From NCBI GenBank assembly GCA_963846025.1, contig CAWJUG010000004.1, forward strand, positions 250,065 through 314,064: 64,000 bases of DNA. Direction: 5' to 3'. The notes beneath the pieces are model-generated. The model did no database searches. It was not told where the DNA came from and saw only the letters and a list, made by a program, of their open reading frames with translations. Below, in pieces: positions 31,850 to 47,166 of this stretch. Source of the DNA: Terriglobia bacterium. GTDB taxonomy: Bacteria; Acidobacteriota; Terriglobia; Bryobacterales; Bryobacteraceae. Position 1 is the stretch's first letter. Every line of letters begins with the position of its first letter. The position numbers and the translations under genes are program-made.

Positions 31850-33476
31850 CTATTTCTTGGCGGGCGAGATCCTGGAGGTCACTTTTCCCCAGTAAATACT
31901 GCAGTCCTTGATGTCTGCCTTTTGGGCAAAGACTTGGTCGAGATGCATCTCGTCGATACGATCGTCGTTGCAGCTTTCGACCGTATCGAACTTGCCGGCT
32001 TTGACTTCCGCATCGAGTTCTTTCTGGGACACGATGTGATAGAGCTTTTCTTCTGGCGCAGGCAGTTCGAGATTATGAGAATACGAAAATTCCATGCCGA
32101 ATGGAGGCGTGCGTTTGGTCAGGAAGTACACCAGCTCATCAGCGTAGACAATGCCATTCCTCGGGGTTACGGCATCCACCTTTCTTGCGATCTTTTCGTA
32201 ATCCTGCCACGTAGTCGAGTCACGCTCGTTGAACAGAGCGCGACCGTAGCCCAGAAGTAGCAGCGAAACCACGATTGCCGTGGGCCACAGCGGGCGCTGA
32301 TGCTCGCTGAGGCTGGAACCGGCTCCGTATAGCCCGACCGCCGCCAGGACGCTTACCAGGGGAATCGCAACAATAAAATAGCGGGCGAACGTGGGGTGCG
32401 CAGTTGCAATATAGACGATGAGAGCGGCGGCCGCTACTGCAGCCAAATAGAACTGCGCTCGGTTTGGCAGCGGCCAATGACTTTTTCTTGCCAAGAAGTA
32501 GACACCGAAACCCGCTAACAACCCGAGCAGCAGGGTCTGGCCATCGGCCAGCCATGCACTCAGGACATCTATATCGTGAGTTGTAGCGCCCGGCCAGTTT
32601 ACGCGGCGAAAAATAGTCTGATATTGCACCACGTTGAAGAAGACTTGGCGCGGCGCTTTTGCAAAAAGGCAGAAAACAGGAATAGAAGGGATGAGAGAAC
32701 CGAGAACGAAACGCCGCGGCATTCTTCACCCGGCCGGCCCGCTGCGCCCGCAAGCAAAACCAAAGGAAAAGGACGGGTGCGGCGGGAGCCGTCAGCAGGG
32801 TGCATTCAGCCGCGCCACCCGCCAAAAGCCCCGATGCAACCGCCAACCACGGCCGGCGTGGCTGAGCAGGCCAAGCTACGGCCACGCGGAATGCTGCGAA
32901 GACGAGCAGCATGCCGGCGGCATACGCTTGTGCAATAGGACCAAACTGCACGACTTCGCTGTGCAATCCGATAAAACAGACGGCGATTATCGCCGCGGGG
33001 CCACGCCAACGCGGAACGGGGAAACGGCTCAATAGGAACTGTGCCGCCAAGAACATCGTACCGGCAATCTCGAGTGCCGCCGGAATGTGCAGCACGCGCC
33101 AATGTTGCCCGAAGAAACGCATCCACGCAGCGTTCCAGTAGGCGTTCAGCGGAGTTTGCGGAAAACAGAAATCGATATAGGGAGTTTTGCCGCGATTGAT
33201 GAGCTGTGCCGCCAAAACATGGAAGCCTTCATCCCACACGAAGCCCATGGTCAAGGCGTACGCCAGCAGGCCCAGACTGAGGAGAGCGGTAATCCCGTAG
33301 ACCCAAAGGCAGGTCTTGGATGAGGACGTCACATACGGCTCTTCGGGAAGAGGGGGAGGCGTTGCGGATGTCGTAAGATCCACTCCGCGCGATGATACGA
33401 TGCGCGCTGGTCGATTTTCAACCGTGCTCTTGGCCAGGCCGTCCGGAGTGGACACCTGCGGAGGCACTCCGTGCAT
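31850..33476 (-). pseudogene. ArnT/PMT-like (GT-C fold) membrane glycosyltransferase, 1-nt frame disruption at the AAA/TTT run 32709-32711
   Basis: N-terminal frame reads ...FVWDEGFHVLAAQLINRGKTPYIDFCFPQTPL...RAGRVKNAAAF. The +1 frame continues VLGSLIPSIPVFCLF... with further TM helices and a soluble C-terminal domain. Confidence 0.65.
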
Positions 33477-33575
33477 GCTGGCAAGTCGCTGGCCAAAGCG
33501 TGGGAAAAATCCGACCTTACGACCAACCCTAGCAAAAGTAGGAAAAATCCTACCCGCCTATTCTGAGAAAACGGT

Positions 33576-33603
33576 TTGAATACGGCGCGATTTCCGTTAT
33601 AAA
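33576..33603 (+). promoter_or_regulatory. candidate sigma70-type promoter
   Basis: TTGAAT (33576-33581), a 16-nt spacer, then TATAAA (33598-33603), located in the divergent intergenic region upstream of the micro-ORF. No experimental support. Confidence 0.25.
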
Positions 33604-33769
33604 AAAGTACAGGACGCGCTCAACAAACAAGCTTAGATAACAAAGAACAGCCGACGCGAACAGGATTAAGTTCTGGAAAAGCGGAACGGCCGTAACGGGA
33701 CGGGTGTGTCTGGACGCAGCAACGTTTATGTCGGGCTATTTGAACGATTTAATTCAATTGAACCAAATC

Positions 33770-33797
33770 TGAGTTCTTGCCTGCCAGCAAGAACTCA
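33770..33797. promoter_or_regulatory. perfect 11-bp inverted repeat (operator or 5'-UTR hairpin)
   Basis: TGAGTTCTTGC-ctgcca-GCAAGAACTCA, bracketed by the direct repeat CAAATCTGAG. It ends 11 nt before the Shine-Dalgarno of the micro-ORF. Confidence 0.6.
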
Positions 33798-33820
33798 AAT
33801 CTGAGGAAAGGAGGATCGCC

Positions 33821-33871
33821 ATGAAAGTTAAGAGCAATGTGAAAGCTGGTCAATCCATTTGGCCGGCGTAA
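33821..33871 (+). CDS. 16-codon ORF MKVKSNVKAGQSIWPA (candidate exported peptide or regulatory leader peptide)
   Basis: AGGAGG at 33809-33814, 6 nt before the ATG. TAA stop. Followed by a terminator-like hairpin and the HlyD/PCAT genes. Too short for the ORF track. No homology evidence is available to me. Confidence 0.45.
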   Translation: MKVKSNVKAGQSIWPA

Positions 33872-33912
33872 TTACTGTATCGACGCCTTTTACAAAATCC
33901 TTTAGTGAATCA

Positions 33913-33948
33913 GGCCGCTCGCTTTTCTCTGGGCGGCCACTTCTTTTT
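33913..33948 (+). terminator. intrinsic-terminator/attenuator-like hairpin
   Basis: GGCCGCUCG-cuuuucuc-UGGGCGGCC (9 bp including 2 G-U pairs) followed by ACUUCUUUUU. It lies between the micro-ORF stop and the HlyD ATG (34004). Confidence 0.4.
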
Positions 33949-34003
33949 GGGGCGTTTTCTTAAAGCCTCGTCCTCTGCACTGAATGTATCGCCGGTTCGT
34001 GCC

Positions 34004-35159
34004 ATGTCCAATAGCTTCCGTCGAACAAATTTAACTCTAAAGAGTGATCACGGGAAAATTTCCGTCATTTTCTTAGCCACTGGGCTAATTCTGATTGGGG
34101 CCTGGATCGCGTGGGCTTTTCGCGCGCACGTCACCCGCTACGAGGTCTCCGATTCGGCGCGCCTGGAAGTCGCCGCTGCCACTTATCCCGTCCAAGCCGG
34201 GGTCTCAGGTAGGTTGACCGCCAACAAGTTGACATTAGGCCGCGAAGTGCAAGCAGGGGAGGTATTGGCGCAACTGGACAGCCGCGCCGAACAACTGAGC
34301 CTGGATGAGGAGCGCACCCGCACCGCCGCCTTTGAGCCGCAGTTAGCAGCTTTGCGTTCAGAGATGGAATCTGAAGGCGCGGGACGCCAGGACGAGCAAA
34401 ATGTTTTGAGTCTGTCCGTAGCCGCAGCGCAGGCGCAGCTTCGGGAAGCGGAAGCGCAAGCAGCGCTATCGAGCAGGGAAGCGCAACGCGCCGAAAGCCT
34501 GCGCAAAGGAAGGCATCATCGCTGAAGCCGAAGTTCAGCGTGCAGAGGCAGACGCGCAAAGCAAGCGCGCAGCGGCGGAAAACCTTCGTGCTGCACTGGC
34601 CCGTCTGACACCGGAACAGGCGGTGCGAGACACGGATCGCGATCTCAAAGTGCGCGAGCTTTCCGAGCAGATCGCTAAGTTGGATGCCGATTGGATGGCT
34701 TCGACGGCGACCGTGCGACGGCTGGAATACGAGATGGAGCGCCGTAAGATTCGCGCGCCGGTGGCAGGCCGTCTGGGCGAGTGCGCGGTTCTGCGGCCGG
34801 GCTCCCATATCACCGAGGGACAACAACTCGGCGTCATTCTGCCCTCTGGACGATTGCAAATTACGGCTGAATTTCAGCCTGCCGCGGCGCTAGGCAAGCT
34901 AAAACCAGGCCAAACAGCTACGATGCGGCTGCAGGGATTTCCCTGGGCGCAGTACGGAACTGTGCCCGCCAAAGTCGTGCAGGTGGCGAGCGAGATTCGC
35001 GATGGGAAAGTGCGCGTTGAACTGGCGGTAAACGGCTTTTCGTCTGCACGAATTCCTTTACAGCATGGACTGCCCGGTTCAGTCGAAGTAGAGATTGAGC
35101 GGGTGTCGCCGTTGGCCTTGATCATGCGGTCGGCAGGCGATCTGGTGGGTACTCATTGA
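34004..35159 (+). pseudogene. HlyD-family membrane fusion/secretion adaptor (NHLP-bacteriocin-system type), 1-nt frame disruption near 34508-34510
   Basis: N-terminal TM (ISVIFLATGLILIGAWIAWAF), a coiled coil, then frame +1 continues EGIIAEAEVQRAEADAQSKRAAAENL...RKIRAPVAGRLGE...GLPGSVEVEIE. Removing one G of AAAGGA restores LRKEGIIAEAE. Confidence 0.8.
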
Positions 35160-37846
35160 CACGCCCGCTGCCCAAATTTTTTCGAAAGTTTGCAAAGCGA
35201 ACCTTCTTTGCTCCCGAAGTGGTCCAGACTTCGAATCTGGACTGCGGACCAGCCTCCCTAAAGTGCCTGCTTGAAGGATTTGGAATTCCGGTCAGCTACG
35301 GCCGTTTGCGCGAGGAGTGCCAGACATCGCTCGACGGCACCTCAATCGACACGATGGAATTTGTCGCGCAACAGCTTGGGTTGGACGCCGAGCAAATCAT
35401 GCTGCCGTTGGACCATGTGCCGCTCCCGCAATCGCAGGCATTGCCGTCCATCGTAGTGGTGAAACTGGCAAGCGGCCTGACACACTTCGTAGTCCTTTGG
35501 AGAAAGCACGGAAAGCTTTTGCAGTTAATGGATCCGGCAACCGGACGCCGTTGGACGAGCATAGGCCAATTTGCGAGCGAGCTTTTCGAGCACACAATTG
35601 AGGTACCAGCGGCTGATTGGCGCGAGTTCGCGATATCGGCGGAATTTCAAGCCGCTTTACACGCACGGCTCCTGGCCCTTGGCATATCGGCACAGACGAG
35701 CGAGGAATTGCGAAGACACGCCTGCGATCAGAGCGGCTGGTATGGGCTGGCTTCGTTCGACGCAGCGGTTCGTGTTACTCGCGCGCTGCTAAGCAGCGGA
35801 GCAATACGGAGTGGGCCCGAGGCTAAACGATTTATCGGACAGCTCGTCGAATCCCCGGATTTGATTCCGGCGCGCTATTGGACGGCGCGTGAATCCGCAC
35901 AGCACGATGGCACGCAGCACGTGCTGATGTCGGGCGCAGTGCTGGTACGAGCAAAAGGGAAACGCGCTGTGGAGGCTGGTGGTTCAGCGGCAAACGGCGT
36001 CGCGGCGGCGCTCAAACAAACGCCAGTTTCTCCCGCCCGTGAACTGCTGCGCTTGTTATGGCAGAGCGGAGCGGCATCGCTCGGCACGGTAGGGTTTGCC
36101 GTAGCAGCAGCGGCAGCCGGCACAGTGATAGAGGCGCTGCTGTTTCGAAGTTTGTTCGATATTAGCGGTGAGCTTGCCTTGGCCGGGCAACGTATGGTAG
36201 CGATCGGCGCAATAGTGCTATTCGGCCTGGCTTTGCTCTTTCTTGAGCTCCCAGTATTCGTCCAAGTAGCTCGCGCCGGCCGGCAGCTCGAAAATCGGCT
36301 CCGCGTGGCCTTTCTCACAAAAATACCTCGGCTGGCGGACCGCTACTTCCAAAGCCGCTTAACGTCCGATATGGCCGAGCGCAGCCACGCAACCCACCGC
36401 TTGCGCCACTTGCCCGATCTGCTGAGGCAACTGCTAGGAGGCGTCTTCGAACTATTGGCCACCGCAACGGGAATCATTTGGCTGGATGCATCGGCGGCTC
36501 CGTTTGTCGTGATCGCAGTCGCGGCTGCCTTGGTACCGGCCTTCAGCACGCAGCCGCTACTTGCCGAACGCGATCTGCGAGTGCGCAGTCACGCCGCCGG
36601 CCTGACCCGTTTCTATTTGGACGCGATGTTGGGACTGGTCGCCATCCGCGCGCACGGAGGCGAGCAGAACGTGAGACGTGAGCACGAAACGCTTCTGCGC
36701 CACTGGGCCGATGCCGCGTTGCGTCTGCAGCGCGCCGTGGTTTGCATCGAGGGGATTCAGCTTACAGCCATGTTCGGGCTGGTTGCGATGCTGCTTCTCA
36801 CACGGCCACTCGCCGGCACAGATATCGGGCGCGCGTTACTGCTGGTCTACTGGGCCCTGAACCTGCCATCGCTCGGACAAGATGTCGCGGCGCTAACCCG
36901 GCAATATCCGTACTACCGGACCTTGACGTTGCGATTGTTAGAGCCGCTGGGCGCTCCCGAGGAGGAGAGCGCTGAGGACAAAAGCGCCGAGTCCGTCGGC
37001 CTAGGGGCCGCGCCTTCCATCGAATTTCAAGACGTTAACGCTGAGGCCTCAGGCCACACGATCCTACAACAAATCAGCGTACTCATCGAAGCCGGCACAC
37101 ATGTTGCTGTGGTGGGGCCATCGGGTGCGGGCAAATCCAGCTTTATCGGCATTCTACTTGGTTGGTTAAAGCCGAGCGGAGGACGAGTGCTGATGAACGG
37201 CGTTCCGCTGAATCATGCAAGCTTGCGACGCTCTGCGGCATGGGTCGATCCGGCAGTGCAGTTATGGAACCGTTCGCTGCTATCGAACTTGACTTACGGG
37301 TGCGAGTCTGCGGCCGGCGAAGTGGGCCATGCGGTTGACACGGCATTGCTGCGGCAGGTACTCGAGAATCTGCCTGATGGTTTGCAGACAAAGTTAGGCG
37401 AGGGCGGCGCACTGGTTTCAGGCGGCGAAGGCCAGCGAGTCAGGCTGGCCCGAGCGCTGCTGCGAAAAGACGCCCAACTTATTCTGCTGGACGAGCCGTT
37501 CCGCGGGCTGGACCGCGAAAAGCGCCGCGAGCTTCTGGAAAGAGCCCGGAGTCGCTGGCGTGGGCGCACAATGATCTGCATCACTCACGACATTGCGGAG
37601 ACGCAAGCGTTTCACCGGGTGCTGGTGATGGAAAACGGGCGCATAGTCGAAGACGGCGATCCGCGGGAACTTGCCGGCAACGAAGAGTCGCGCTACGCAC
37701 AGTTTCTTGCGGCGGAACGGCAGATACGCAACGGAATGTGGGGCGCGGACCTGTGGCGAAGAATCCGCATTCATTCCGGACAGGCGCTCGAAGAAGTGCC
37801 CGCGCCCGGAAAGAAACAAGAGGTTCGCGAGAGCGAAGTGGCCTGA
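35156..37846 (+). CDS. peptidase-containing ABC exporter (C39 peptidase + permease + ATPase; NHLP-type export ABC1-like)
   Basis: C39 triad context NLDCGPASLKCLL / LTHFVVLW / LMDPATG. Six-TM exporter domain. Walker A GPSGAGKS, signature VSGGEGQR, Walker B LILLDEPF. TTG start overlaps the HlyD stop (TTGA). Confidence 0.9.
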   Translation: MTRPLPKFFRKFAKRTFFAPEVVQTSNLDCGPASLKCLLEGFGIPVSYGRLREECQTSLDGTSIDTMEFVAQQLGLDAEQIMLPLDHVPLPQSQALPSIVVVKLASGLTHFVVLWRKHGKLLQLMDPATGRRWTSIGQFASELFEHTIEVPAADWREFAISAEFQAALHARLLALGISAQTSEELRRHACDQSGWYGLASFDAAVRVTRALLSSGAIRSGPEAKRFIGQLVESPDLIPARYWTARESAQHDGTQHVLMSGAVLVRAKGKRAVEAGGSAANGVAAALKQTPVSPARELLRLLWQSGAASLGTVGFAVAAAAAGTVIEALLFRSLFDISGELALAGQRMVAIGAIVLFGLALLFLELPVFVQVARAGRQLENRLRVAFLTKIPRLADRYFQSRLTSDMAERSHATHRLRHLPDLLRQLLGGVFELLATATGIIWLDASAAPFVVIAVAAALVPAFSTQPLLAERDLRVRSHAAGLTRFYLDAMLGLVAIRAHGGEQNVRREHETLLRHWADAALRLQRAVVCIEGIQLTAMFGLVAMLLLTRPLAGTDIGRALLLVYWALNLPSLGQDVAALTRQYPYYRTLTLRLLEPLGAPEEESAEDKSAESVGLGAAPSIEFQDVNAEASGHTILQQISVLIEAGTHVAVVGPSGAGKSSFIGILLGWLKPSGGRVLMNGVPLNHASLRRSAAWVDPAVQLWNRSLLSNLTYGCESAAGEVGHAVDTALLRQVLENLPDGLQTKLGEGGALVSGGEGQRVRLARALLRKDAQLILLDEPFRGLDREKRRELLERARSRWRGRTMICITHDIAETQAFHRVLVMENGRIVEDGDPRELAGNEESRYAQFLAAERQIRNGMWGADLWRRIRIHSGQALEEVPAPGKKQEVRESEVA

Positions 37847-39933
37847 TGCGAGTTGGCGCACTGCAGGCGATCGGCTGGCCCGCAAACCGTCTGCCCGATG
37901 CAATTCGAGAGTTATGCGAAAAGGGCGGCTTGCGAGTGCACGAGATTCTGCAGCACGCGGCGGATGCAGGTTCCAGCGGCAACCCCCGGGCGCGGATTGA
38001 GTGGCACGCCAAGGCGCTGGGGTGCGAAGCCGAGACATTGCACACTAATTTGCGTGATCTGGATGAGGAACTACGGTTCGCACATCCGGCGATTCTGCAG
38101 TTGAACGAAGACAGCTTCATCGCGATTCTGCGTAGCGGAAAGCGCGAAGCTCGCGTCCTGACGCCCGAGTTGAAAACTCAAAATATTTCGCTCGACGAAT
38201 TAGTGCGCGCCATTCGCGAGCCGCAGATGCAAGCGCTTCAAGAGCCCCTGCAGGAGTTGCTGGGCCGCACGGGGATCAAGCGCGCGCGGCAGAGCCAGGC
38301 GCTAGACAAGCTGCTGTCTGAGCAACTGGCGGTGAAGAGGTTTGAAGCTTGCTGGCTGCTACGGCCATACGCTGGTTCCCGTACATCTGAATGGCTACGG
38401 CAGACAAATGCATACGGGTTGGGCGTGAGCTTGGCAGCAACGCATACGATGCAATACATTTTTTGGCTGGCCTCGTGGTTCATCCTTGGAACGCTTTCAC
38501 TACAAGGGAGAATGGACCGCGGCTGGCTGCTCGCCTGGGCATTATTGTTGATGACATTAGTCCCCCTCCGCGTTTTCACGACCTGGTTACAGGGCGCACT
38601 GGCGATTGGAGTTGGCAGCGCGCTGAAAAGACGCCTGCTTCTGGGTGCTTTACGGCTTGCGCCAGACGAAATGCGGCATCAGGGTATTGGGTCTTTTCTG
38701 GCGCAAGTGCTGGAAACCGAAGCAGTGGAGAGTCTAGCATTAAGCGGCGGAATTGCAGGGCTCCTGGCAATTATTGAGATCGGGGTCTCTGGTTTCGTGC
38801 TGGGCCGATTCGCTTTGCTGCTGCTTGCCTGGTGCGCGATCACGATTTTTGCAGGCTGGCGTTTTCTGGCGCGTTACCAAAACTGGACCGGTGTGCGCAT
38901 GGAGATGACGCAAGATTTGGTCGAGCGCATGGTAGGTCATCGGACGCGCTTAGCGCAGGAGTCACAGGAGTCCTGGCACGAATCCGAAGATCAAAAGCTA
39001 GCAGACTATGTTCGCGCTTCTGGCAGAGTGGATAAGACCGGGGCCTGGCTGGTCGCGGCCATTCCGCGTGGATGGCTGCTGGCCGGAGTGGCGTGTCTGG
39101 CGCCCACGATTATCGTGAACAAGAGCTCAGCCTCTAGTCTTGTCGTGCTATTAGGTGGCATTCTGCTGGCCCAAACCGGTTTCAAGCGGCTGCAGGGCTC
39201 TTTTCTGGATATAGCTGGCGCTTGGGTTTCGTGGAAGCGAATTTTTCCCTTGTTCAGGGCCGCTGCCCGAAAAGAAGTTTTGGGCGCCGCCCCCGTGGCC
39301 AGCGAATCGCCGGAAAGATACGCACGGGTTGTGGAAGCCGACCGGCTGGTGTTTCGTTATCGCAAAGAAGGGCGGCCTGCCTTGCAAGGATTGACGATGG
39401 CAATTCATTGCGGCGACCGAATCCTTCTGGAAGGACCTTCAGGCGGGGGAAAAACAACGTTTGCATCATTGCTTTCTGGAGTACGCGAGCCCAGCGCGGG
39501 CCTGCTCCTGGTAAACGGATTGGATCGGCAAACACTAGGTAACGTGCAGTGGCGGAAGGCAGTGGCCGCCGCTCCGCAGTTCCACGAGAATCATATCCTC
39601 ACAGAGACGCTGGCATTCAATCTGTTGATGGGCCGCCGCTGGCCACCTACGCAACCCGATCTGGAGGAAGCCGAATGTCTGTGCCGCGAGTTGGGGTTAG
39701 GCACTCTTTTAGATCGTATGCCGGGAGGAATTCTCCAGATGGTCGGAGAAGGCGGCTGGCAACTATCGCACGGTGAGCGCAGCCGCATTTATATCGCCCG
39801 GGCGTTATTACAACAACCGGATTTGGTCATTCTGGACGAAAGCTTCGCTGCGCTGGACCCTGAGAGCCTGCAAACGGCGCTCGATTGCACCCTGAAGCGT
39901 GCTAAAACACTGATGGTAATCGCACATCCTTGA
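37846..39933 (+). CDS. ABC exporter permease/ATPase with a Cys-less C39-like N-terminal domain (NHLP-type export ABC2-like)
   Basis: ATG shares one nt with the upstream stop (TGATG). Walker A GPSGGGKT, signature LSHGERSR, Walker B LVILDESF. The N-terminal 130 aa lack the CG...H motifs. Confidence 0.85.
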   Translation: MRVGALQAIGWPANRLPDAIRELCEKGGLRVHEILQHAADAGSSGNPRARIEWHAKALGCEAETLHTNLRDLDEELRFAHPAILQLNEDSFIAILRSGKREARVLTPELKTQNISLDELVRAIREPQMQALQEPLQELLGRTGIKRARQSQALDKLLSEQLAVKRFEACWLLRPYAGSRTSEWLRQTNAYGLGVSLAATHTMQYIFWLASWFILGTLSLQGRMDRGWLLAWALLLMTLVPLRVFTTWLQGALAIGVGSALKRRLLLGALRLAPDEMRHQGIGSFLAQVLETEAVESLALSGGIAGLLAIIEIGVSGFVLGRFALLLLAWCAITIFAGWRFLARYQNWTGVRMEMTQDLVERMVGHRTRLAQESQESWHESEDQKLADYVRASGRVDKTGAWLVAAIPRGWLLAGVACLAPTIIVNKSSASSLVVLLGGILLAQTGFKRLQGSFLDIAGAWVSWKRIFPLFRAAARKEVLGAAPVASESPERYARVVEADRLVFRYRKEGRPALQGLTMAIHCGDRILLEGPSGGGKTTFASLLSGVREPSAGLLLVNGLDRQTLGNVQWRKAVAAAPQFHENHILTETLAFNLLMGRRWPPTQPDLEEAECLCRELGLGTLLDRMPGGILQMVGEGGWQLSHGERSRIYIARALLQQPDLVILDESFAALDPESLQTALDCTLKRAKTLMVIAHP

Positions 39934-39962
39934 TAAACTTGGAATTTACATTCAGGAGTTTC

Positions 39963-40154
39963 ATGGCAGAAGAGAAGCAGACTAGTTCGAAAATAGCGCC
40001 GCACGCGACCTCGCTTAACATAAAGCAAAAAGATAACGTTTACCAGGCTGAATATCTCGGCAGCGGCACGTTTAAGATCGTCAAGCCGAAGCGGCGATCC
40101 CGGAAGCGTAGGCAGTCGCAGTTGAAAGGCACCACGCGCGGCGCTCGCAAGTAG
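39963..40154 (+). CDS. 63-aa protein with an extremely basic C-terminal tail
   Basis: AGGAG 4 nt before ATG 39963. Sequence MAEEKQTSSKIAPHATSLNIKQKDNVYQAEYLGSGTFKIVKPKRRSRKRRQSQLKGTTRGARK. It sits 30 nt after the ABC2 stop on the same strand. Confidence 0.45.
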   Translation: MAEEKQTSSKIAPHATSLNIKQKDNVYQAEYLGSGTFKIVKPKRRSRKRRQSQLKGTTRGARK

Positions 40155-41284: not shown

Positions 41285-42904
41285 CTACAAGAGGACGCGC
41301 TCTCCGCGCGCAGGGCCGACGAAGTATTCAGGACTGATTTCTGCAGACATCGGCAAACGCGTGATAGTTGGCTTAACCAGCAGCAGAGTATCACTTATCG
41401 CGGTGTCACGCGTGTTTTCACTGAAAATTTGGTTCACACCGGAGATATTTGAAAGCCCCGGCAAGCCGGTTCGGGTGCGCGATTGTGTCTTTGAATTCAG
41501 ACCGGCTATTACCGCCCACTCCCCTTCGCGCATGTTGATACTTCCCTTGAACTCTCGCTGATCGATGGCCGGAATTCCATCAAGAGTTTGACTTCCGAGT
41601 GATTTGTAGTTGGCCTCAAGGTCAAGCGATATATTGCCTTCGCCATTGATGCGAGGTGTCAGTTTCAAAAGAATGCCCAAATCTTCCAAGGTGACTTGTC
41701 CAATCGGGTTGTAGATGGAAGAGGCATTCGTTGCCCCGGTAAATGTGGTTTGCGGAATTGGGTATTTGTCCCCAATGTGGAAATTCGCCGTTTGTCCATC
41801 ACCTACTACAACAGTGGCGTCATACAGAGCCTGAGCATGTGAGTCTGAATAGGTCGCAAATAGCGACGCGCTGTTCGTCAGCCCAAGTCCGACGGCAGTA
41901 GCGCCGCCGCCAAAAAGCAGAAACGACGCGCCGCTGGAGATGTTTGTTGGAAGCACATTCTGAAAATGAGCGATATGTCCGAAATCAACGAGGTTGAAGG
42001 ATGTTGGCAAGGACAAGCCGTAATGGAAGCTGCGATCGGAACTGAAGGTCAGAAATTCTACTTCAAACGAGACTTGCGCCTTAGGCAATAGCAATGCCTC
42101 GAGTAGCGCTCGTGCGGTATTGGCCCGCGTGTAGCGGTCACGAACCATAACCATGCGATTGGCTGAATCATAGCCGATGGTGCGTACATTCAGCGTGATT
42201 CGAACCACGTTCGCCGCCTCGATGAGATCCTTCTGATCCAGTGCGTTTGCCAGGGGAAACGTGAGCAATACCTGCGGCTCCAGTTCATTACGTTTCAGTT
42301 CGGTATCGCGGGCAACATAGAAATCGTGCTGCGAAACTGGAAACATAAACGTGCCGGTGGCCGCGGTGAGCCCTTCCATGACCGTGCGAAAGTCCGCTTG
42401 GGCGATATTGAAACGAAGACCAGGATGCAGGTCGAGTTGCGGGTCGAAAATAGGCCGAATCCCAAAGACTTTCGAAATATTTTCGAACAGGGACTTTTCG
42501 TCGCCGCGTATGTCGAATGTGGCAGAGGTCTGTATTGCCTGCAGCTTTGGCATGGGCTGCAGATTGTCGGCACGTTCCCAATCGGCTCGCCTGGCGAGTT
42601 CAAGCGGCGGCTTTGGAGACGAAGCCAGCCCTTCAATTTGGTTTAATTCTTTCGAAACATCGGCACTCTGAATCTCGGCCTTGCTAAGCAGTTTGGCGGC
42701 CGGGGCCAGAGCGTCGCGATTGGCGCGATATGTGCCGTTATGCGGATCGCGAGCGGCAGCGGCAGAGTAAAGCAGATACGCCCGGACGATCTGATTGGAA
42801 TCCTCAGCTTGCTTCGCCTCGGCCGCGATGCGCTCGGCCGTGCGGTCGGCGGCCGCACAGCACAATCCGGCGGCCAGAATGCAGGATATGAGACGAAGCG
42901 TCAA
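41285..42904 (-). CDS. secretin-family outer-membrane channel (type II/III secretion system protein family)
   Basis: Signal peptide MTLRLISCILAAGLCCAAA. C-terminal secretin domain (...GEWAVIAGLNSKTQSRTRTGLPGLSNISGVNQIFSENTRDTAISDTLLLVKPTI). TPR-like helical N-terminus. Confidence 0.8.
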   Translation of the reverse strand: MTLRLISCILAAGLCCAAADRTAERIAAEAKQAEDSNQIVRAYLLYSAAAARDPHNGTYRANRDALAPAAKLLSKAEIQSADVSKELNQIEGLASSPKPPLELARRADWERADNLQPMPKLQAIQTSATFDIRGDEKSLFENISKVFGIRPIFDPQLDLHPGLRFNIAQADFRTVMEGLTAATGTFMFPVSQHDFYVARDTELKRNELEPQVLLTFPLANALDQKDLIEAANVVRITLNVRTIGYDSANRMVMVRDRYTRANTARALLEALLLPKAQVSFEVEFLTFSSDRSFHYGLSLPTSFNLVDFGHIAHFQNVLPTNISSGASFLLFGGGATAVGLGLTNSASLFATYSDSHAQALYDATVVVGDGQTANFHIGDKYPIPQTTFTGATNASSIYNPIGQVTLEDLGILLKLTPRINGEGNISLDLEANYKSLGSQTLDGIPAIDQREFKGSINMREGEWAVIAGLNSKTQSRTRTGLPGLSNISGVNQIFSENTRDTAISDTLLLVKPTITRLPMSAEISPEYFVGPARGERVLL

Positions 42905-43720: not shown

Positions 43721-45544
43721 ATGCTTCTGGAATCCAGCGCACAAATTTTCTTCGGAGTATTCGCCGTATCTGCGCTCTCATCAAGTTGGCCCTTGATGCT
43801 TGCGGCATTGGCCTGCCTGCTCCTTTTGAGCGGCATCGACGATCTGGTGCCAGTGCTTATCTGTTTTATCGGGTGGCTCTCTAGTGAGTCTAGGGACAAG
43901 CGTTCGGGTGCCGAGACCACCGAGACCCCTGAGCGCCGCATCGCTATCTTTGTTCCTTGCTGGAAGGAGTCGGAGGTTATCGAGCGAATGGTCCGGCAAA
44001 ACCTCTCGCGCATTCGCTACCGGAACTTCGACATTTTCCTGGGCGTGTACCCAAACGACCAAGTTACCTGCGATGCAGCGCTAGACGTCGCCAGCGATTT
44101 CTCGAACGTCCATGTCGCCGTTGGTCCTCGCGCGGGGCCAACCTCGAAAGCCGACTGCCTGAACTCCATCTATTGCAGCATGACAAACTTCGAGGATGGG
44201 CACGGCATTCACTTTGACACCATCGTTCTGCATGATGCCGAAGATGTTATCCATGCGGACGCGCTCTGCATCATCAATCGAGAGCGGACCCAGTACGAAA
44301 TGGTACAGGTCCCTGTTTTGCCGCTGCCGACGCCTCCAGGCGCTTTCACACACGGCGTCTACTGCGACGAGTTTGCGGAATTTCAACTCGTCGACATGCG
44401 GGCGCGACAGTACACCCGGTCTTTTGTTCCATCGAGTGGAGTAGGAACAGGCTTCGCACGCGACGTTCTGGAGCGTTTGGCGTCGGAACGTGGCGGCCAA
44501 CTCTTCGATCCATCGAGTTTAACGGAAGACTACGATATCGGAGTTCAGATCCACTACGCAGGTTTTCGACAACTGTTTTATCCCCTCAAGCGAAGCGTGA
44601 GAGGAATCGTCGCAACTCGCGAATATTTTCCAGGCAGGGTGCGCAGTGCAATACGGCAACGTACGCGCTGGATAACGGGAATTGCATTGCAATCCTGGGA
44701 ACGGCACGGATGGCGGGGTTCCTGGCGGACACGGTATTGGTTCTGGCGCGATCGCAAGGGCTTGTTCACCAATCCGCTCAGCTTACTGACGAATATCGTT
44801 TTCGTGGCGGGCGTCACGGACTGGTTCTTGAGCGTCATTTCGCACCGGCCGTGGGCGTTTGCAACATCAAATCCTGCAGTAGTTAACCTCTGCTTAGCAA
44901 CGACGTGCCTGCAGGCGTTCCGTTTGACGCTGCGTTCCTTGTGCGTAGCCAGATTGTTCGGGGCAGGCATGGGCGTAACGGTGGCGCTGAGGTGCTTCCA
45001 TGCCAATTTCGTGAATTGCGCCGCTTCGATTTTCGCCGTTAGAAACTATGTACATTCCAGACTCGGGCGGAAGGCGCTCTGCTGGGACAAAACGGAACAC
45101 GCATATCCAGTTCGAGCGGCTGACGATCCGCACCGGGCAGCTTTGGAAGAAGTATTGGTGAAACAGGGCTACGTCTCCGAAGCTAGACTGCAGGTGGCGC
45201 GAACGCACTTGCCGCAGGGCGAAAATATGGCCGACTTTCTTCTGGCTAACCGGCTGGTCTCTGACAAAGATCTATGCCGGGCGATCAGTTTGCAATCGGG
45301 ACTGCCCTGGTCTGATATCGACATCGCGCAAGTCGACCGGAACGTCTTGCGTAGCTTGCCCGCCCGAGTTGAGAAAGATCACAAAGTGCTTCCATTTCGG
45401 GTCTCCGCAGGACGTCTACATATCGCGGCTACTCGGCTACCCGAGGCTCAAGTATTCGATGAGGTCAGCAAGTTCACGCGATTGCAGGTTGAGTTCGTAT
45501 TGGTAACGCGAGTCAATTATGCGCAGCTTCGCAAGCTGCTGTAA
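43721..45544 (+). CDS. NfrB-like membrane glycosyltransferase (GT2) with a C-terminal MshEN/T2SSE_N-like domain
   Basis: Shares blocks I recall from E. coli NfrB: SGIDDLV, GVYPND, GPTSKADCLN, LHDAEDV, PSSGVGTG, SLTEDYDIG, REYFP, RQRTRWITGI, WRDRKG. The C-terminal 135 aa resemble the MshEN fold. Confidence 0.85.
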   Translation: MLLESSAQIFFGVFAVSALSSSWPLMLAALACLLLLSGIDDLVPVLICFIGWLSSESRDKRSGAETTETPERRIAIFVPCWKESEVIERMVRQNLSRIRYRNFDIFLGVYPNDQVTCDAALDVASDFSNVHVAVGPRAGPTSKADCLNSIYCSMTNFEDGHGIHFDTIVLHDAEDVIHADALCIINRERTQYEMVQVPVLPLPTPPGAFTHGVYCDEFAEFQLVDMRARQYTRSFVPSSGVGTGFARDVLERLASERGGQLFDPSSLTEDYDIGVQIHYAGFRQLFYPLKRSVRGIVATREYFPGRVRSAIRQRTRWITGIALQSWERHGWRGSWRTRYWFWRDRKGLFTNPLSLLTNIVFVAGVTDWFLSVISHRPWAFATSNPAVVNLCLATTCLQAFRLTLRSLCVARLFGAGMGVTVALRCFHANFVNCAASIFAVRNYVHSRLGRKALCWDKTEHAYPVRAADDPHRAALEEVLVKQGYVSEARLQVARTHLPQGENMADFLLANRLVSDKDLCRAISLQSGLPWSDIDIAQVDRNVLRSLPARVEKDHKVLPFRVSAGRLHIAATRLPEAQVFDEVSKFTRLQVEFVLVTRVNYAQLRKLL

Positions 45545-45546
45545 GT

Positions 45547-45990
45547 TCAGTGAAGCTGTGGATTGAAGATATCCAAAGGCGCGAACTCTACGATTCGCCA
45601 TTTGGAAGCAACTGGAGCGAGCTTCACGTGAAGCTCACCGCTGCGGCGTCTGGATTTGCCGGTTCCCAGATCGGTAAGCGTCATGTCCCAGGTAACGGTG
45701 AGCACAACAAAGTTTTCGGAGTCTTCTTCGTCCGTAATATCCAATTGATTCTCAACCTGAAATGCGGAAAGCCCTTCGAAATAGCGCCTTAATGTGTCGT
45801 ATTCCGGGTATGACTTGGAAAAGTGAGCTATAGCTTCGGCTGCATTGCCAGAGCTGAGAGCCTCGGCAACTGCGGCAATCTGGGCACGAGCATCCAACGA
45901 CTGATCCGCGGCTGGCGCCCGTTGGGGCTGAACAACCAGCACAAACAAAGCAGTTAGACAAACGACCAGGTTCGTCGCGTTGGCCCTCAT
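45547..45990 (-). CDS. secreted hypothetical protein (possible NTF2-like fold)
   Basis: ATG 45990 overlaps the argJ stop (ATGA). Signal peptide MRANATNLVVCLTALFVLVV. About 120-aa mature domain. Confidence 0.5.
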   Translation of the reverse strand: MRANATNLVVCLTALFVLVVQPQRAPAADQSLDARAQIAAVAEALSSGNAAEAIAHFSKSYPEYDTLRRYFEGLSAFQVENQLDITDEEDSENFVVLTVTWDMTLTDLGTGKSRRRSGELHVKLAPVASKWRIVEFAPLDIFNPQLH

Positions 45991-47166
45991 GTCCGATAAC
46001 TGCCATTGATCTGAATGTATCCTTCGGTGAAATCGCACGTGAAAAAGCGGCTCTCTCCTTTGCCATTCGCTCGCGACGAAATCCCGATGCGCACGTCGGC
46101 GGCATCCAGCTTCTGCTTCAAATCGGCTTCGTTGAAATCGGCTGCTAAGCCGCTGCGGCACACGGGAACACCCTGCAGATCGATATCGATATCGGACGGG
46201 TTAAAGGGCACGCCGGAGTACCCTGCGGCGGCAAGGATGCGTCCCCAATTAGGATCGTTCCCGGCAATGGCGGTCTTGACAAGCGGTGAGTTCGCAACAG
46301 ATCGAGCGACTCGGCGCGCCTGGTCATTTGTTCTGAAGCCATTCGTGCGGATAACGATGAGCTTTCGCGCCCCTTCCCCGTCAGCCGCAATCTGCTCTGC
46401 CAGAGATTCCATGACGCGAGTGATGGCTTGCGCCAGCGCCAGGCGCTCTTTAGACGCCTGGCTTCACACCGGACGCTCCATTGGCTAGCAGCAGCACCAT
46501 ATCATTGGTGGACATATCGCCATCGACGGACAAGGAGTTATAGCTCCGCTCTGTTGCCGCAAGCAGGATCTTGTGAAGGTCATCCGCACCAACCGCTCCG
46601 TCGGTCATCACAAAGCCGAGCGTCGTCGCCATGTTCGGGTGAATCATGCCGGAGCCTTTTGTCATACCGGCGACACGTACTATTCCGCCTTTCAACTTCA
46701 ATTCTTCGAAAGCAGTTTTCGCGCGTGTGTCGGTGGTCATGATGGCCTCTGCTACCGACTGGAACGCATCGGCAGAAAGCCTTGCGATGAGCCCTGGAAG
46801 AGCATCCGTAATAAGCCTGGGATCTAACTCCACGCCGATTACGCCTGTAGAAGACGGAATGACATAGTTGGTTTTCGAACGGAGTTCCCGAGCGAGCGCT
46901 TTACAAGTAACAGTCGCAACGCGGTCCCCATTAGGCGTCGCGCAGTTCGCGTTACCTGCATTCACTATCGCCGCGGCTACTTTGCCGTTGGACCCACGTA
47001 AGTGTTTGCGCGCCAGCCGCACCGGCGATGCTTGCACTGCATTTTGCGTGAATACGGCGGCCGCCTGAGCAGGCTTATCCGGCACAATCAGAGCCAGATC
47101 ATCTTTTGCCTGCTTTCGAATGCCGGCGTATATCGATGCGTAGCGATAGCCCAACGGAAGGTTCAC
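45987..47166 (-). pseudogene. argJ: bifunctional ornithine acetyltransferase/N-acetylglutamate synthase ArgJ, 1-nt frame disruption near 46449
   Basis: Autoprocessing site GMIHPNMATTLGFVMTD. N-terminal frame ends ...ANGASGVKPGV*. The +1 frame continues KERLALAQAITRVMESLAEQIAADGEGARKLIVI... GTG start. Confidence 0.85.

Follow-up and report, generated by a model that had tools for sequence, protein, structure and literature searches.

What does a peptidase-containing ABC exporter carry when no canonical precursor gene lies beside it? The question is raised by a locus on the forward strand of the window (the whole stretch of 64,000 nucleotides analysed here), which the first-pass annotation had described as an orphan export locus to which no cargo could be assigned. 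Our analysis points to the product of a 16-codon gene directly upstream as the likely cargo of the neighbouring peptidase-ABC transporter. The five elements of that annotation were all recovered at the same coordinates, the reading frame of the HlyD gene being the one exception; together with the predicted signals around them, they are:

33576..33603, + strand: candidate sigma70-like promoter, TTGAAT (33576-33581), 16-nt spacer, TATAAA (33598-33603)
33770..33797, + strand: 5' UTR stem-loop, TGAGTTCTTGC / loop CTGCCA / GCAAGAACTCA, 23 nt upstream of the ATG
33806..33814, + strand: Shine-Dalgarno sequence GAAAGGAGG, before the micro-ORF
33821..33871, + strand: precursor micro-ORF of 16 aa, MKVKSNVKAGQSIWPA, a leader-bearing ORF upstream of HlyD, with leader MKVKSNVKAG (33821-33850), predicted core QSIWPA (33851-33868) and stop (33869-33871)
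33913..33948, + strand: intrinsic terminator/attenuator, GGCCGCTCG...CGGGCGGCC followed by a T run, 3' of the micro-ORF
34004..35159, + strand: HlyD-family periplasmic adaptor with a 1-nt insertion at ~34506-34508; the repaired protein has 384 aa
35156..37846, + strand: ABC1, peptidase-containing ABC transporter of 896 aa (Pfam C39, ABC_tran, ABC_membrane); C39 domain ~aa 20-145, extra helical domain ~150-270, membrane domain ~300-600, nucleotide-binding domain ~620-860
37846..39933, + strand: ABC2, partner ABC half-transporter; N-terminal domain C39-like but degenerate and non-catalytic (from hhalign and motifs)
39963..40154, + strand: 63-aa basic ORF, AGGAG upstream, start 30 nt past ABC2

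Components of the export operon

The reading of these genes as a peptidase-ABC (PCAT) peptide-export operon, with an HlyD adaptor and another ABC subunit whose peptidase is dead, was upheld, and the HlyD/ABC1 and ABC1/ABC2 junctions are indeed the overlaps TTGA (at 35156) and TGATG (at 37846). ABC1 matched Pfam Peptidase_C39 (PF03412) at 74.1 bits (cut-off 22). Its C39 domain had been called catalytically complete, and the Cys, His and Asp were found in NLDCGPASLKCLL, LTHFVVLW and LMDPATG respectively; among 68 orthologues, Gln24, His110 and Asp126 are 100% conserved and Cys30 98%. ABC_tran was matched at 76.6 bits and ABC_membrane at 23.7 bits, under its cut-off of 28, and the nucleotide-binding motifs GPSGAGKSS, VSGGEGQR, LLDEPF and THD are conserved. 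ABC1 therefore has the make-up of a PCAT/AMS protein, i.e. a catalytic N-terminal C39 domain followed by a type I exporter membrane domain and a nucleotide-binding domain with Walker A/B, signature and H-loop. Its best fold matches were PCAT1 (6v9z) and HlyB (7sgr, HlyB/HlyD), with PCAT1 entries on top. In contrast to PCAT1 (~715 aa), however, ABC1 carries an extra ~120-residue helical domain between the C39 and membrane domains, where the AF2 model has a pLDDT of 84-94 across residues 140-270.

ABC2 lacks the Cys and His in its N-terminal domain, as annotated, and hhalign aligned this region to the ABC1 C39 domain with a probability of 90.6% (E 1.3e-6). ABC2 carries the signature motif LSHGE and terminates at the H-loop (..AHP, then stop); both the motifs and this C-terminal end are kept in 53/53 orthologues. 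For comparison we assembled 80 related transporter loci (numbered with the prefix L) from at least six phyla, 1.27 Mb in total, out of a clade for which the scan confirmed at least 558 relatives. ABC2 adjoins ABC1 in most of the 80 loci, and the adaptor is full-length in 39 and of a short form in 22. An HlyD adaptor encoded with an ABC component is also the arrangement of type I secretion, although the adaptor gene in the window is frameshifted. Its annotated boundaries held, but its integrity did not: the 1156 nt are not a multiple of three and the frame shifts near 34506, which had been overlooked. Alignment showed that the gene is intact at 1155 nt in four relatives and that the window has one extra base in CGCAAAGGAAGG; the repaired protein matched Pfam HlyD_3 at 51 bits. 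Two other genes within 14 kb are likewise frameshifted, and because three genes in this span, HlyD included, carry shifts, the insertion is probably a sequencing error. If it is real, the export system is disabled in the window.

The triad of HlyD, peptidase-ABC and peptidase-less ABC is shared with NHLP/Nif11 export (TIGR03794/03796/03797), and the NHLM models were the best or among the best NCBIfam matches of the window proteins. The proposed NHLM_micro assignment nevertheless failed in the NCBIfam HMM search: ABC1 scored 192.9 bits against a cut-off of 853.3, ABC2 110.2 against 709.4 and HlyD 41.6 against 156.2, i.e. 4-8 times under the curated equivalog cut-offs, and we rejected it for all three proteins. 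Furthermore, NHLP/Nif11 precursors have ~80-100 aa and come with a long leader. No NHLP-/Nif11-type long-leader precursor was among the genes identified within ~7 kb on either side, and the absence of a canonical 15-30-residue double-glycine, NHLP or Nif11 precursor nearby was upheld. So was that of a maturase: one flank encodes a CCG/4Fe-4S protein, an FGE-sulfatase-like protein, DUF4159, cytochrome c and a frameshifted membrane glycosyltransferase-like gene, the other SIS, a secretin, an Fe-trafficking protein and GT2. No TolC-like outer-membrane factor was found in the locus or in these ~7-kb flanks; the secretin is part of a different machinery.

Among the elements inside the locus, the 63-aa basic protein had been listed as a candidate cargo. 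The ORF exists at its annotated position, is co-directional and has its own AGGAG, and its identity of 67-76% across six relatives marks it as a real gene. As the exporter's cargo or functional partner, however, it is extremely improbable. It occurs in only 6 of the 80 loci, all from close Acidobacteriaceae, in two of which (L003 and L006) the match lies ~1.4 kb past ABC2 with an opposite-strand gene called between; it is absent from L001, L005, L007, L009 and L010, all of which have the micro-ORF. The protein matches nothing in Pfam or NCBIfam and lacks a leader of the KAG or GG type, and its place beside the transporter is local synteny only.

The 16-codon gene and its family

The micro-ORF, by comparison, had rightly been flagged as a cis candidate. 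Sixteen of the 18 closest loci (those with ABC1 ≥ 55% identical) retain it immediately upstream of HlyD; its amino-acid identity in relatives is 73-93%, and related ORFs occur across phyla, so that the locus can no longer be called an orphan. L011, one of the two loci that lack it, has no upstream sequence. An unbiased listing of Shine-Dalgarno-preceded ATG ORFs upstream of HlyD revealed a common leader, MK[VIT]K[ST]N[VI]KAG, before any pattern was imposed. ORFs with this leader are present in 34/80 loci, from Acidobacteriota, Chloroflexota, Myxococcota, Gamma-/Betaproteobacteria, Thermoanaerobaculia and Syntrophobacterales; the fetched flanks of the other 46 transporter loci contained no such ORF. 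We refer to the family delimited here by the working name KAG-leader micro-precursors, defined by an N-terminal M-[KT]-x-[KRN]-[ST]-x-[VILT]-[KRQ]-A-G. The window ORF has all its elements: this N-terminal pattern, the Shine-Dalgarno sequence, a short tail of variable sequence and a place next to the triad. The leader pattern occurred 62 times in the 1.27 Mb of related loci, but not once in the reversed sequences or in any of five shuffles. Sixty of the 62 ORFs are co-oriented with the transporter, most lie 1.2-1.6 kb 5' of ABC1, and all 62 have a purine-rich AGGAG-like stretch upstream, for which the pattern search had not asked. Family members are almost always neighbours of the triad of HlyD, PCAT and second ABC.

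Conservation at the codon level showed that the peptide itself is under constraint. Ala9 and Gly10 are each encoded by four different codons and Ser5 by both AGC and TCN, and because codons vary synonymously at conserved residues, selection acts on the peptide. This constraint changes sharply past Gly10: from about 0-2 bits over positions 1-10, entropy rises to 2.7-3.6 bits from position 11 on. What follows the leader is hypervariable, 4-35 residues long with a median of 6. Tandem copies, 2-7 per array, are frequent, and the paralogues share the leader but differ in their cores (e.g. seven copies each in L036 and L058).

The leader DNA pattern alone retrieved more than 120 further contigs from metagenomes, with 113 distinct cores; among the matches were multi-cassette precursors, proteins of up to 304 aa that repeat the leader motif. 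This transporter was again encoded on 12 of the 31 contigs of ≥ 4 kb, and since the other 19 had none, the linkage of peptide and transporter is frequent but not obligate. We found no match to the family in Pfam, NCBIfam or the searched literature, and every longer relative in the protein database is named 'hypothetical protein'. KAG-leader genes are a widespread family of very small, putatively secreted-peptide precursors for which we found no published description.

The signals around the micro-ORF are conserved as well. The block TTGAtT-N16-TATAAA is kept in L001, L003 and L006, and L012 shares the TATAAA part (alignment A2); a consensus scanner did not list the candidate promoter because its -10 hexamer ends in A. 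The 5' UTR stem-loop, with 13 pairs in the window, has counterparts before the micro-ORFs of L001-L004, L006, L007, L009, L010, L012, L022 and L037, with a CCGCCA or CTGCCA loop and stems that differ in sequence yet stay paired. An Rfam search with this element gave no match; it may serve in mRNA stability, processing or regulator binding. GAAAGGAGG is invariant across the eight sequences of alignment A2. Downstream, the terminator has a 9-pair stem with seven GC pairs, and GGCCGC...GCGGCC plus a T run also follows the last peptide gene in L001, L002, L003, L006, L007, L009, L010, L012 and L022.

This layout could also be read as a cis-regulatory leader peptide (uORF/attenuator), whose translation, or stalling at W-P-A-stop, would control terminator read-through for an operon with its cargo elsewhere. 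A 16-codon ORF with a terminator 41 nt on, directly 5' of an operon, is indeed the classic arrangement, and Trp-Pro near the stop resembles arrest peptides such as TnaC. Yet the N-terminal 10 residues are constrained here while the C-terminus is hypervariable in length and sequence, the opposite of arrest peptides, and the conserved A-G end agrees with the specificity of the neighbouring C39 peptidase. Repetition of the genes in arrays and of the motif within multi-cassette proteins also speaks against attenuation. Importantly, arrays may follow the transporter at a distance of 3-10 kb, occupy the opposite strand or sit on contigs that have no transporter at all. Cis attenuation cannot explain such arrangements, and we consider this reading very improbable.

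Instead, we favour as a probable reading that the locus is a self-contained double-glycine/type I peptide-secretion unit with the 16-codon gene product as its cargo. Its parts exist, are conserved and co-localize; transcript structure, cleavage, heterodimer formation and export are what we infer from the sequences. Transcription from the promoter near 33576 would yield a short, strongly translated mRNA with the 5' hairpin, the consensus Shine-Dalgarno sequence, the micro-ORF and the terminator, and read-through of the latter would supply the translationally coupled hlyD-abc1-abc2 genes. The 16-aa prepeptide would dock on the active C39 domain of ABC1 via its 10-residue Lys-rich leader, and ABC1 would cleave after Ala9-Gly10. 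The hexapeptide QSIWPA would then pass through an ABC1/ABC2 heterodimer, in which an active peptidase domain is matched with a degenerate C39-like one, and cross the envelope by way of the HlyD adaptor and an outer-membrane channel encoded outside the locus.

Cleavage after KAG is suggested by the end of conservation at the invariant Ala9-Gly10. The site fits the double-glycine rule with Ala-Gly at -2/-1 and Val at -4 (PMC6363468). Canonical double-glycine leaders, however, are 15-30 residues long; their positions -4, -7 and -12 are hydrophobic, -8 is Glu and -1/-2 are small, and the shortest one shown to function with LahT150 had 13-14 residues (PMC6363468). The KAG leader has only 10, with Lys at -7, Val at -8 and no -12, and lacks the hydrophobic contacts that characterized C39 domains use at -7 and -12.

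Modification of the product and its possible function

Would the core be modified before export? In a RiPP reading, the hexapeptide core, e.g. its conserved Trp, would be modified by an enzyme encoded elsewhere and then cut and exported by the PCAT. The motif x-x-[IVL]-W-G-[AST], kept across loci with ABC1 51-100% identical, would suit a recognition site for such an enzyme, and maturases do lie near distant relatives: a LanM between ABC1 and ABC2 in L034 and a B12-radical SAM protein near the multi-cassette precursor of L203. Short Trp-centred pheromones such as Bacillus ComX, some variants of which likewise have a Trp-centred 6-mer core, are prenylated by an enzyme, but no ComQ-like prenyltransferase accompanies the present system. 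No maturase family recurs beside the system in the 80 loci, where, apart from the triad, only signalling proteins and lineage-specific synteny recur, and none was found within ~7 kb in the window. A separate recognition sequence for a maturase would hardly fit into a 10-residue leader, and cores outside Acidobacteriota have no motif in common. On balance, RiPP maturation seems unlikely.

The diderm host and the set of precursor, HlyD-type membrane-fusion protein and PCAT, with the outer-membrane factor encoded elsewhere, match class II microcin secretion by CvaA/CvaB/TolC-MccV (PMC12219008), and hypervariable cores with tandem paralogues could mean an arms race. A miniature microcin for competition is nevertheless improbable. 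Class II microcins have a signal of 15-18 aa, a product of ~5-10 kDa and an adjacent immunity gene (PMC12219008), whereas the present leader has 10 aa and cores of only 4-8 unmodified residues fall far short of that mass. The core is not diversifying within Acidobacteriota but conserved, and kinases and transcription activators are the recurrent neighbours. No small membrane immunity gene recurs beside the precursors in the 80 loci, or accompanies the system in the window; with its 6-aa core, membership of the class was rejected. Published microcin search motifs (M...Rx[IL]x9G[GAS], in UniProt proteins of up to 150 aa) would miss KAG-leader ORFs.

We regard a diffusible signal, unmodified or distally modified, as the most likely product, ahead of a toxin, and give a signalling role as such slightly less than an even chance. 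Beside the transporter, 14 loci encode a kinase with a PD40 propeller and seven an FHA-GAF-sigma54 activator. In all six genome loci with both activator and peptide genes, a -24/-12 sigma54 site precedes the first peptide gene of every array by 42-132 nt, against a background of 0.012 sites per 200 nt. Four of these six (L018, L024, L026 and L039) have cores of the x-x-hydrophobic-W-G-x class, as in the clade of the window. On transporter-less metagenome contigs, a Ser/Thr kinase or FHA-sigma54 activator adjoins the peptide gene in three of eight cases examined. Because sigma54-like sites are rare in the metagenome sample (3/151 peptide starts) and none precedes the activator-adjacent peptide of L172, the case for signalling is confined to a subset of relatives; neither a kinase nor an activator nor a sigma54 promoter was found near the transporter in the window or its closest relatives.

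In that subset, the combination of receptor Ser/Thr kinase, FHA-sigma54 activator and sigma54 promoters suggests signalling. A full autoinducer circuit is a tentative extension, and we hold it to be possible but doubtful: KAG-leader peptides exported by the heterodimeric PCAT would be sensed by the Ser/Thr kinase through its periplasmic propeller, and the kinase, via the FHA-sigma54 activator, would turn the peptide genes on. With the same reserve, such circuits would serve cell-cell signalling in diderm soil and marine Acidobacteriota, Myxococcota, Chloroflexota and Proteobacteria, and multi-cassette precursors might release several signals from one protein.

Relation to known systems and significance

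The system is close in outline to PCAT/AMS export (ComAB-CSP, BlpAB, LahT, PCAT1-CtA). In both, an ABC exporter bears an N-terminal C39 domain with Gln/Cys/His/Asp, two small residues close the leader, position -4 is hydrophobic, and the precursor gene adjoins the transporter. The present system differs in its Lys-rich leader without the Leu(-12)...Glu(-8)-Leu(-7) consensus (PMC6363468), in the brevity of its cores, with KAG precursors of 14-20 aa, and in its two different transporter genes, one with the active peptidase and one with the dead C39-like domain. The latter domain, without Cys/His, and the HlyD adaptor recall HlyB-type secretion. HlyB, however, is a homodimer exporting large RTX proteins with C-terminal signals, whereas the dead domain of ABC2 has an active peptidase subunit as its partner and the likely cargo is a tiny peptide with an N-terminal leader. 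As in ComC/ComAB/ComDE quorum sensing, a small exported peptide is encoded with its own exporter and, in a subset of relatives, the peptide genes also have a sensor kinase and transcription activator of their own and a promoter to match. In contrast to these peptide circuits, the hosts are diderm phyla and the candidate sensor is not a histidine kinase/response regulator pair but a Hanks-type Ser/Thr kinase with a PD40 propeller plus an FHA-sigma54 activator; near the window locus there is no sensor.

Textbooks treat ribosomal peptide signals and double-glycine export as Gram-positive biology. For diderm bacteria we know of few characterized cases, and PCATs without nearby maturases are, to our knowledge, usually left without a cargo. 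With the present locus, a large PCAT clade gains a specific candidate cargo that can be tested, encoded by genes of 14-20 codons that escape standard annotation, being under the usual gene-caller limits. A leader of 10 residues would be the shortest double-glycine-type export tag known to us and is therefore of interest both as a secretion tag of minimal length and for probing C39 substrate recognition. Acidobacteriota are among the most abundant and least understood soil phyla; if the link to the Ser/Thr kinase and the FHA-sigma54 activator is true, their peptide signalling would be opened to direct experiment with a synthetic hexapeptide.

The transporter genes of the locus

All five elements that the first-pass annotation had assigned to the export locus were found where it had placed them, and the TTGA and TGATG overlaps between the transporter genes were confirmed. 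The micro-ORF is flanked by further elements of what would be its own transcription unit.

Features of the locus in the window
33576-33603, +, TTGAAT-16-TATAAA block, conserved in several relatives
33770-33797, +, 5′ stem-loop with loop CTGCCA; counterparts have differing but still paired stems
33806-33814, +, Shine-Dalgarno sequence GAAAGGAGG upstream of the micro-ORF
33821-33871, +, micro-ORF, product MKVKSNVKAGQSIWPA
33913-33948, +, GC-rich hairpin and T run after the micro-ORF; in relatives kept 3′ of the last peptide gene
34004-35159, +, HlyD-type adaptor gene
35156-37846, +, peptidase-ABC gene (ABC1, 896 aa)
37846-39933, +, second ABC gene (ABC2)
39963-40154, +, 63-aa basic ORF with its own AGGAG upstream

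The adaptor gene is present but not intact, as it measures 1156 nt and its frame shifts near 34506. Four relatives carry it intact at 1155 nt, and the alignment places one extra base of the window within CGCAAAGGAAGG. Frame changes also split an upstream glycosyltransferase-like gene (32655-32758) and a gene at 45990-47028; altogether, three genes within 14 kb are each split by a single frame change and are intact in relatives. The closest relative, L022, is itself full of frame changes, ABC1 and ABC2 included. We therefore read these frameshifts as indel errors, which suggests a long-read assembly; genuine inactivation is a possible alternative for the HlyD insertion.

The Cys, His and Asp contexts quoted earlier for the C39 peptidase domain are present in ABC1, which scored 74.1 bits against Pfam Peptidase_C39 (cut-off 22) and also matched ABC_tran. 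By the membership tests for peptidase-containing ABC transporters (PCATs), ABC1 is one. Its orthologues, of ∼880 aa, number in the hundreds in Acidobacteriaceae and Bryobacteraceae (59-81% identity); across 68 orthologues, conservation is 100% for Gln24, His110 and Asp126 and 98% for Cys30. Scanning one genome from each species, we confirmed at least 558 relatives and compared the best 80 of them as loci. These span Acidobacteriota, Chloroflexota, Myxococcota, Gamma-, Beta- and Alphaproteobacteria, Planctomycetota, Thermoanaerobaculia, Entotheonella and others, and most of them have the gene order adaptor-ABC1-ABC2. The earlier assignment to NHLM-type exporters did not hold, since ABC1, ABC2 and HlyD reached 192.9, 110.2 and 41.6 bits against cut-offs of 853.3, 709.4 and 156.2 respectively.

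The N-terminus of ABC2 lacks Cys and His, as first described, and aligned with the ABC1 C39 profile (hhalign probability 90.6%, E 1.3e-6), which marks it as a degenerate C39-like domain. In 53/53 orthologues the ABC2 signature motif is LSHGE instead of LSGGQ, and the H-loop is the very end of the nucleotide-binding domain (..VIAHP*, 39913-39933 in the window; again 53/53); both features suggest an asymmetric ATPase pair. We infer a putative ABC1/ABC2 heterodimer, in which one peptidase domain would be active and the other dead. ABC1 also has an extra helical domain between the C39 and membrane domains (residues ∼150-270; AF2 pLDDT 84-94). Its top structural matches were PCAT1 and HlyB, from a moderate full-length model (mean pLDDT 65.7, pTM 0.38) that served only for domain boundaries and fold-match ranking; a sequence search of the PDB gave mostly generic nucleotide-binding-domain matches.

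A 'mini-HlyD' adaptor of ∼160-210 aa stands in for the full adaptor in 22 of the 80 loci, mostly from Chloroflexota and Bryobacterales, and the two examples read (L006:7366-8001 and L013:7519-8001) are missing the coiled-coil hairpin region. No adaptor match was found in L004. Downstream of the transporter genes, Acidobacteriaceae share a conserved arrangement of genes for a secretin, an Fe-trafficking protein of the YggX type and a GT2-MshEN fusion (window 41285-42904, -, and 43721-45544, +). These probably form a polysaccharide or pilus locus that has no link to the export finding.

A conserved leader and a changing core

The locus had been described as an orphan with unknown cargo; we find instead that the conserved micro-ORF upstream of the transporter genes is the likely cargo gene. 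A tblastn search with the 16-mer recovered it 5′ of HlyD in eight loci at 73-93% identity. When all ATG ORFs of 8-45 aa preceded by a Shine-Dalgarno sequence were listed upstream of HlyD, the same leader appeared in many more loci and phyla.

Examples of leader and core
MKVKSNVKAG-QAIWGA
MKTKTNTKAG-PKIRSVPS, Alteromonadaceae, several copies
MTIKSKVRAG-GRCGGTPDV, Kofleriaceae, four copies

Across 1.27 Mb of related loci, the leader pattern matched 62 ORFs, which lie in the window and in 28 loci, 60 of the 62 on the transporter strand, and it had no match in the same sequence reversed or in five shuffles. Relaxed searches and manual reading added L008 (with a GTG start), L018, L025, L039, L059 and L076, bringing leader-bearing ORFs to 34 of the best 80 of at least 558 relatives. 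Among the 18 loci with an ABC1 at least 55% identical to that of the window, 16 have the micro-ORF, and one of the other two (L011) comes without upstream sequence. Codon use varies beneath the conserved residues, with four codons each for Val7, Ala9 and Gly10 and both AGC and TCN for Ser5; selection acts on the peptide.

Variability is at most ∼2 bits at positions 1-10 and rises to ∼3 bits or above at position 11 and beyond, a comparison in which the search pattern itself constrains positions 1-10; the unbiased support for this contrast is thus the ORF listing upstream of HlyD. Cores are 4-35 residues long (median 6); among the paralogues of an array the leader stays constant and the core does not. 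This combination is the signature expected of a leader-plus-core precursor, and the invariant Ala-Gly at the leader end suits the specificity of the C39 peptidase encoded alongside. Judged from these comparisons, the micro-ORF is a real gene, and its product is the likely cargo of the exporter.

Several findings contradict a role of the micro-ORF as a cis attenuator: conservation is N-terminal rather than C-terminal, the peptide genes occur in tandem arrays, some arrays lie 3′ of the transporter genes or on contigs that lack them, and multi-cassette proteins exist. A stem-loop with loop CCGCCA or CTGCCA precedes Acidobacteriaceae micro-ORFs by 22-30 nt (window, L001-L004, L006, L007, L009, L010, L012, L022 and L037), as judged by per-sequence pairing counts without a formal covariation test, the short hairpin alignment having register slips. 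The flanks of the micro-ORF unit fail to align, so that RNAalifold run on all of it gave no usable structure, and Rfam gave nothing above threshold for 33400-34100. The arrangement would yield a short, abundant precursor transcript (predicted at ∼33610-33948), with some transcription continuing into the transporter genes, a layout typical of bacteriocin and RiPP operons.

The 63-aa protein, with its very basic tail KPKRRSRKRRQSQLKGTTRGARK, had been proposed as a second cargo candidate. Six Acidobacteriaceae loci have it at 67-76% identity, which makes it more conserved than ABC2, and it has no family match. As cargo it is less favoured than a diffusible peptide signal encoded by the micro-ORF: it occurs in only 6/80 loci, and in L003 and L006 the match does not follow ABC2 directly but lies ∼1.4 kb past it, beyond a gene called on the opposite strand. 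It appears unrelated to the exporter.

In the Pyrinomonadaceae MAG locus L017 (5918-6436), six tandem ORFs of 15-22 codons (M...DPPIV[IV][ST]GG) lie 5′ of HlyD; they end in GG without a KAG leader and resemble the terminal cores of multi-cassette precursors. Some Chloroflexota and Entotheonella transporter versions (L033, L038, L047, L049, L051, L061, L062 and L073) adjoin a Band-7-like gene and pairs of long pentapeptide-repeat proteins. The search found no KAG micro-ORF beside these, so their cargo may differ.

Multi-cassette precursors and known export systems

A metagenome scan with degenerate leader DNA alone returned at least 120 contigs. Among the matches listed are 122 ORFs no longer than 50 aa; 116 of these have a Shine-Dalgarno sequence, there are 113 distinct cores, and the adaptor/ABC set recurs on 12 of the 31 listed contigs that reach 4 kb. 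The scan also brought up multi-cassette precursors, which are 42-304 aa long and have up to ∼11 repeats (metagenome contigs L082-L200, and loci L201 and L203). Their repeat consists of a variable stretch of 3-6 aa, then [NQ]HNQTxARG, then LKVK[TS]xVKAG, and they often end in ...DPPxI[IV]R[DH]. Cutting at KAG would leave a C-terminal 'follower' on the internal cassettes.

Multi-cassette precursors
L163:62, -, 304 aa
L164:6486, -, 212 aa
L115:351, +, 160 aa
L201:10001-10417 and L203:10001-10576, relatives

All 116 database relatives of these precursors are unnamed or 'hypothetical', none with a relevant Pfam domain, and one, in an Acidobacteria MAG, lies 1.8 kb 5′ of HlyD-PCAT-ABC2. Pfam and NCBIfam gave no family for single-cassette precursors 20 aa or longer, a concatenated pair or five multi-cassette precursors, and a full-text literature search for leader strings and related keywords found no description. 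The motifs and length ranges of a microcin survey (PMC12219008) would miss genes of this type.

The system works like double-glycine/PCAT export and like the type I secretion of class II microcins, but it is not NHLM, its leader is not a canonical double-glycine leader and its product is not a microcin. At 10 residues, the leader fits canonical double-glycine leaders at -1, -2 and -4 only, whereas characterised C39 domains also use -7 and -12, and the shortest leader shown to work with LahT150 has 13-14 residues (PMC6363468). What sets the system apart is a predicted minimal Lys-rich KAG leader, cores of hexapeptide scale with multi-cassette relatives, and a putative heterodimeric transporter, one peptidase domain active and one dead, that carries a domain insertion and has a shortened ABC2. 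A recurrent kinase and FHA-sigma54 neighbourhood is also distinctive.

Neighbouring genes and the role of the peptide

No recurrent maturase stands beside the system in the 80 loci, and none was found within ∼7 kb of the locus in the window, in agreement with the first-pass annotation. Lone distant members adjoin LanM (L034) or a B12-radical SAM gene (L203); a RiPP modified by distally encoded enzymes is a minority possibility. An FGE-sulfatase-like gene 4 kb upstream was rejected as a maturase because it is not conserved beside the system elsewhere. A miniature microcin is unlikely, as the products would be unmodified 4-8-mers and no immunity gene recurs in the 80 loci.

Signalling proteins make up the recurrent extra neighbours. 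Of the 80 loci, 14 have a Hanks-type kinase with a PD40 propeller and seven an FHA-GAF-sigma54 activator; in L058, a wHTH-STAND-TPR regulator precedes a seven-gene peptide array, and BTAD/NB-ARC/TPR regulators occur as well. In 6/6 genome loci that combine activator and peptide genes, every array has a sigma54 -24/-12 site 42-132 nt 5′ of its first peptide gene, against a background of 0.012 per 200 nt. A Ser/Thr kinase or FHA-sigma54 activator directly adjoins the peptide gene on three of the eight transporter-less metagenome contigs examined. The window core QSIWPA is of the class x-x-hydrophobic-W-G/P-x, which recurs in 4/6 regulator-linked loci. Near the window locus or its close relatives we found no kinase, activator or sigma54 site, and sigma54 promoters were rejected as a general family feature (3/151 metagenome peptide starts, none in the window clade).

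From the signalling neighbours and the case against the rivals, we therefore favour a diffusible signal as the role of the peptide, at a tentative level that stops a little short of even confidence, and give less weight to a toxin, to a cis-regulatory uORF and to the 63-mer as cargo.
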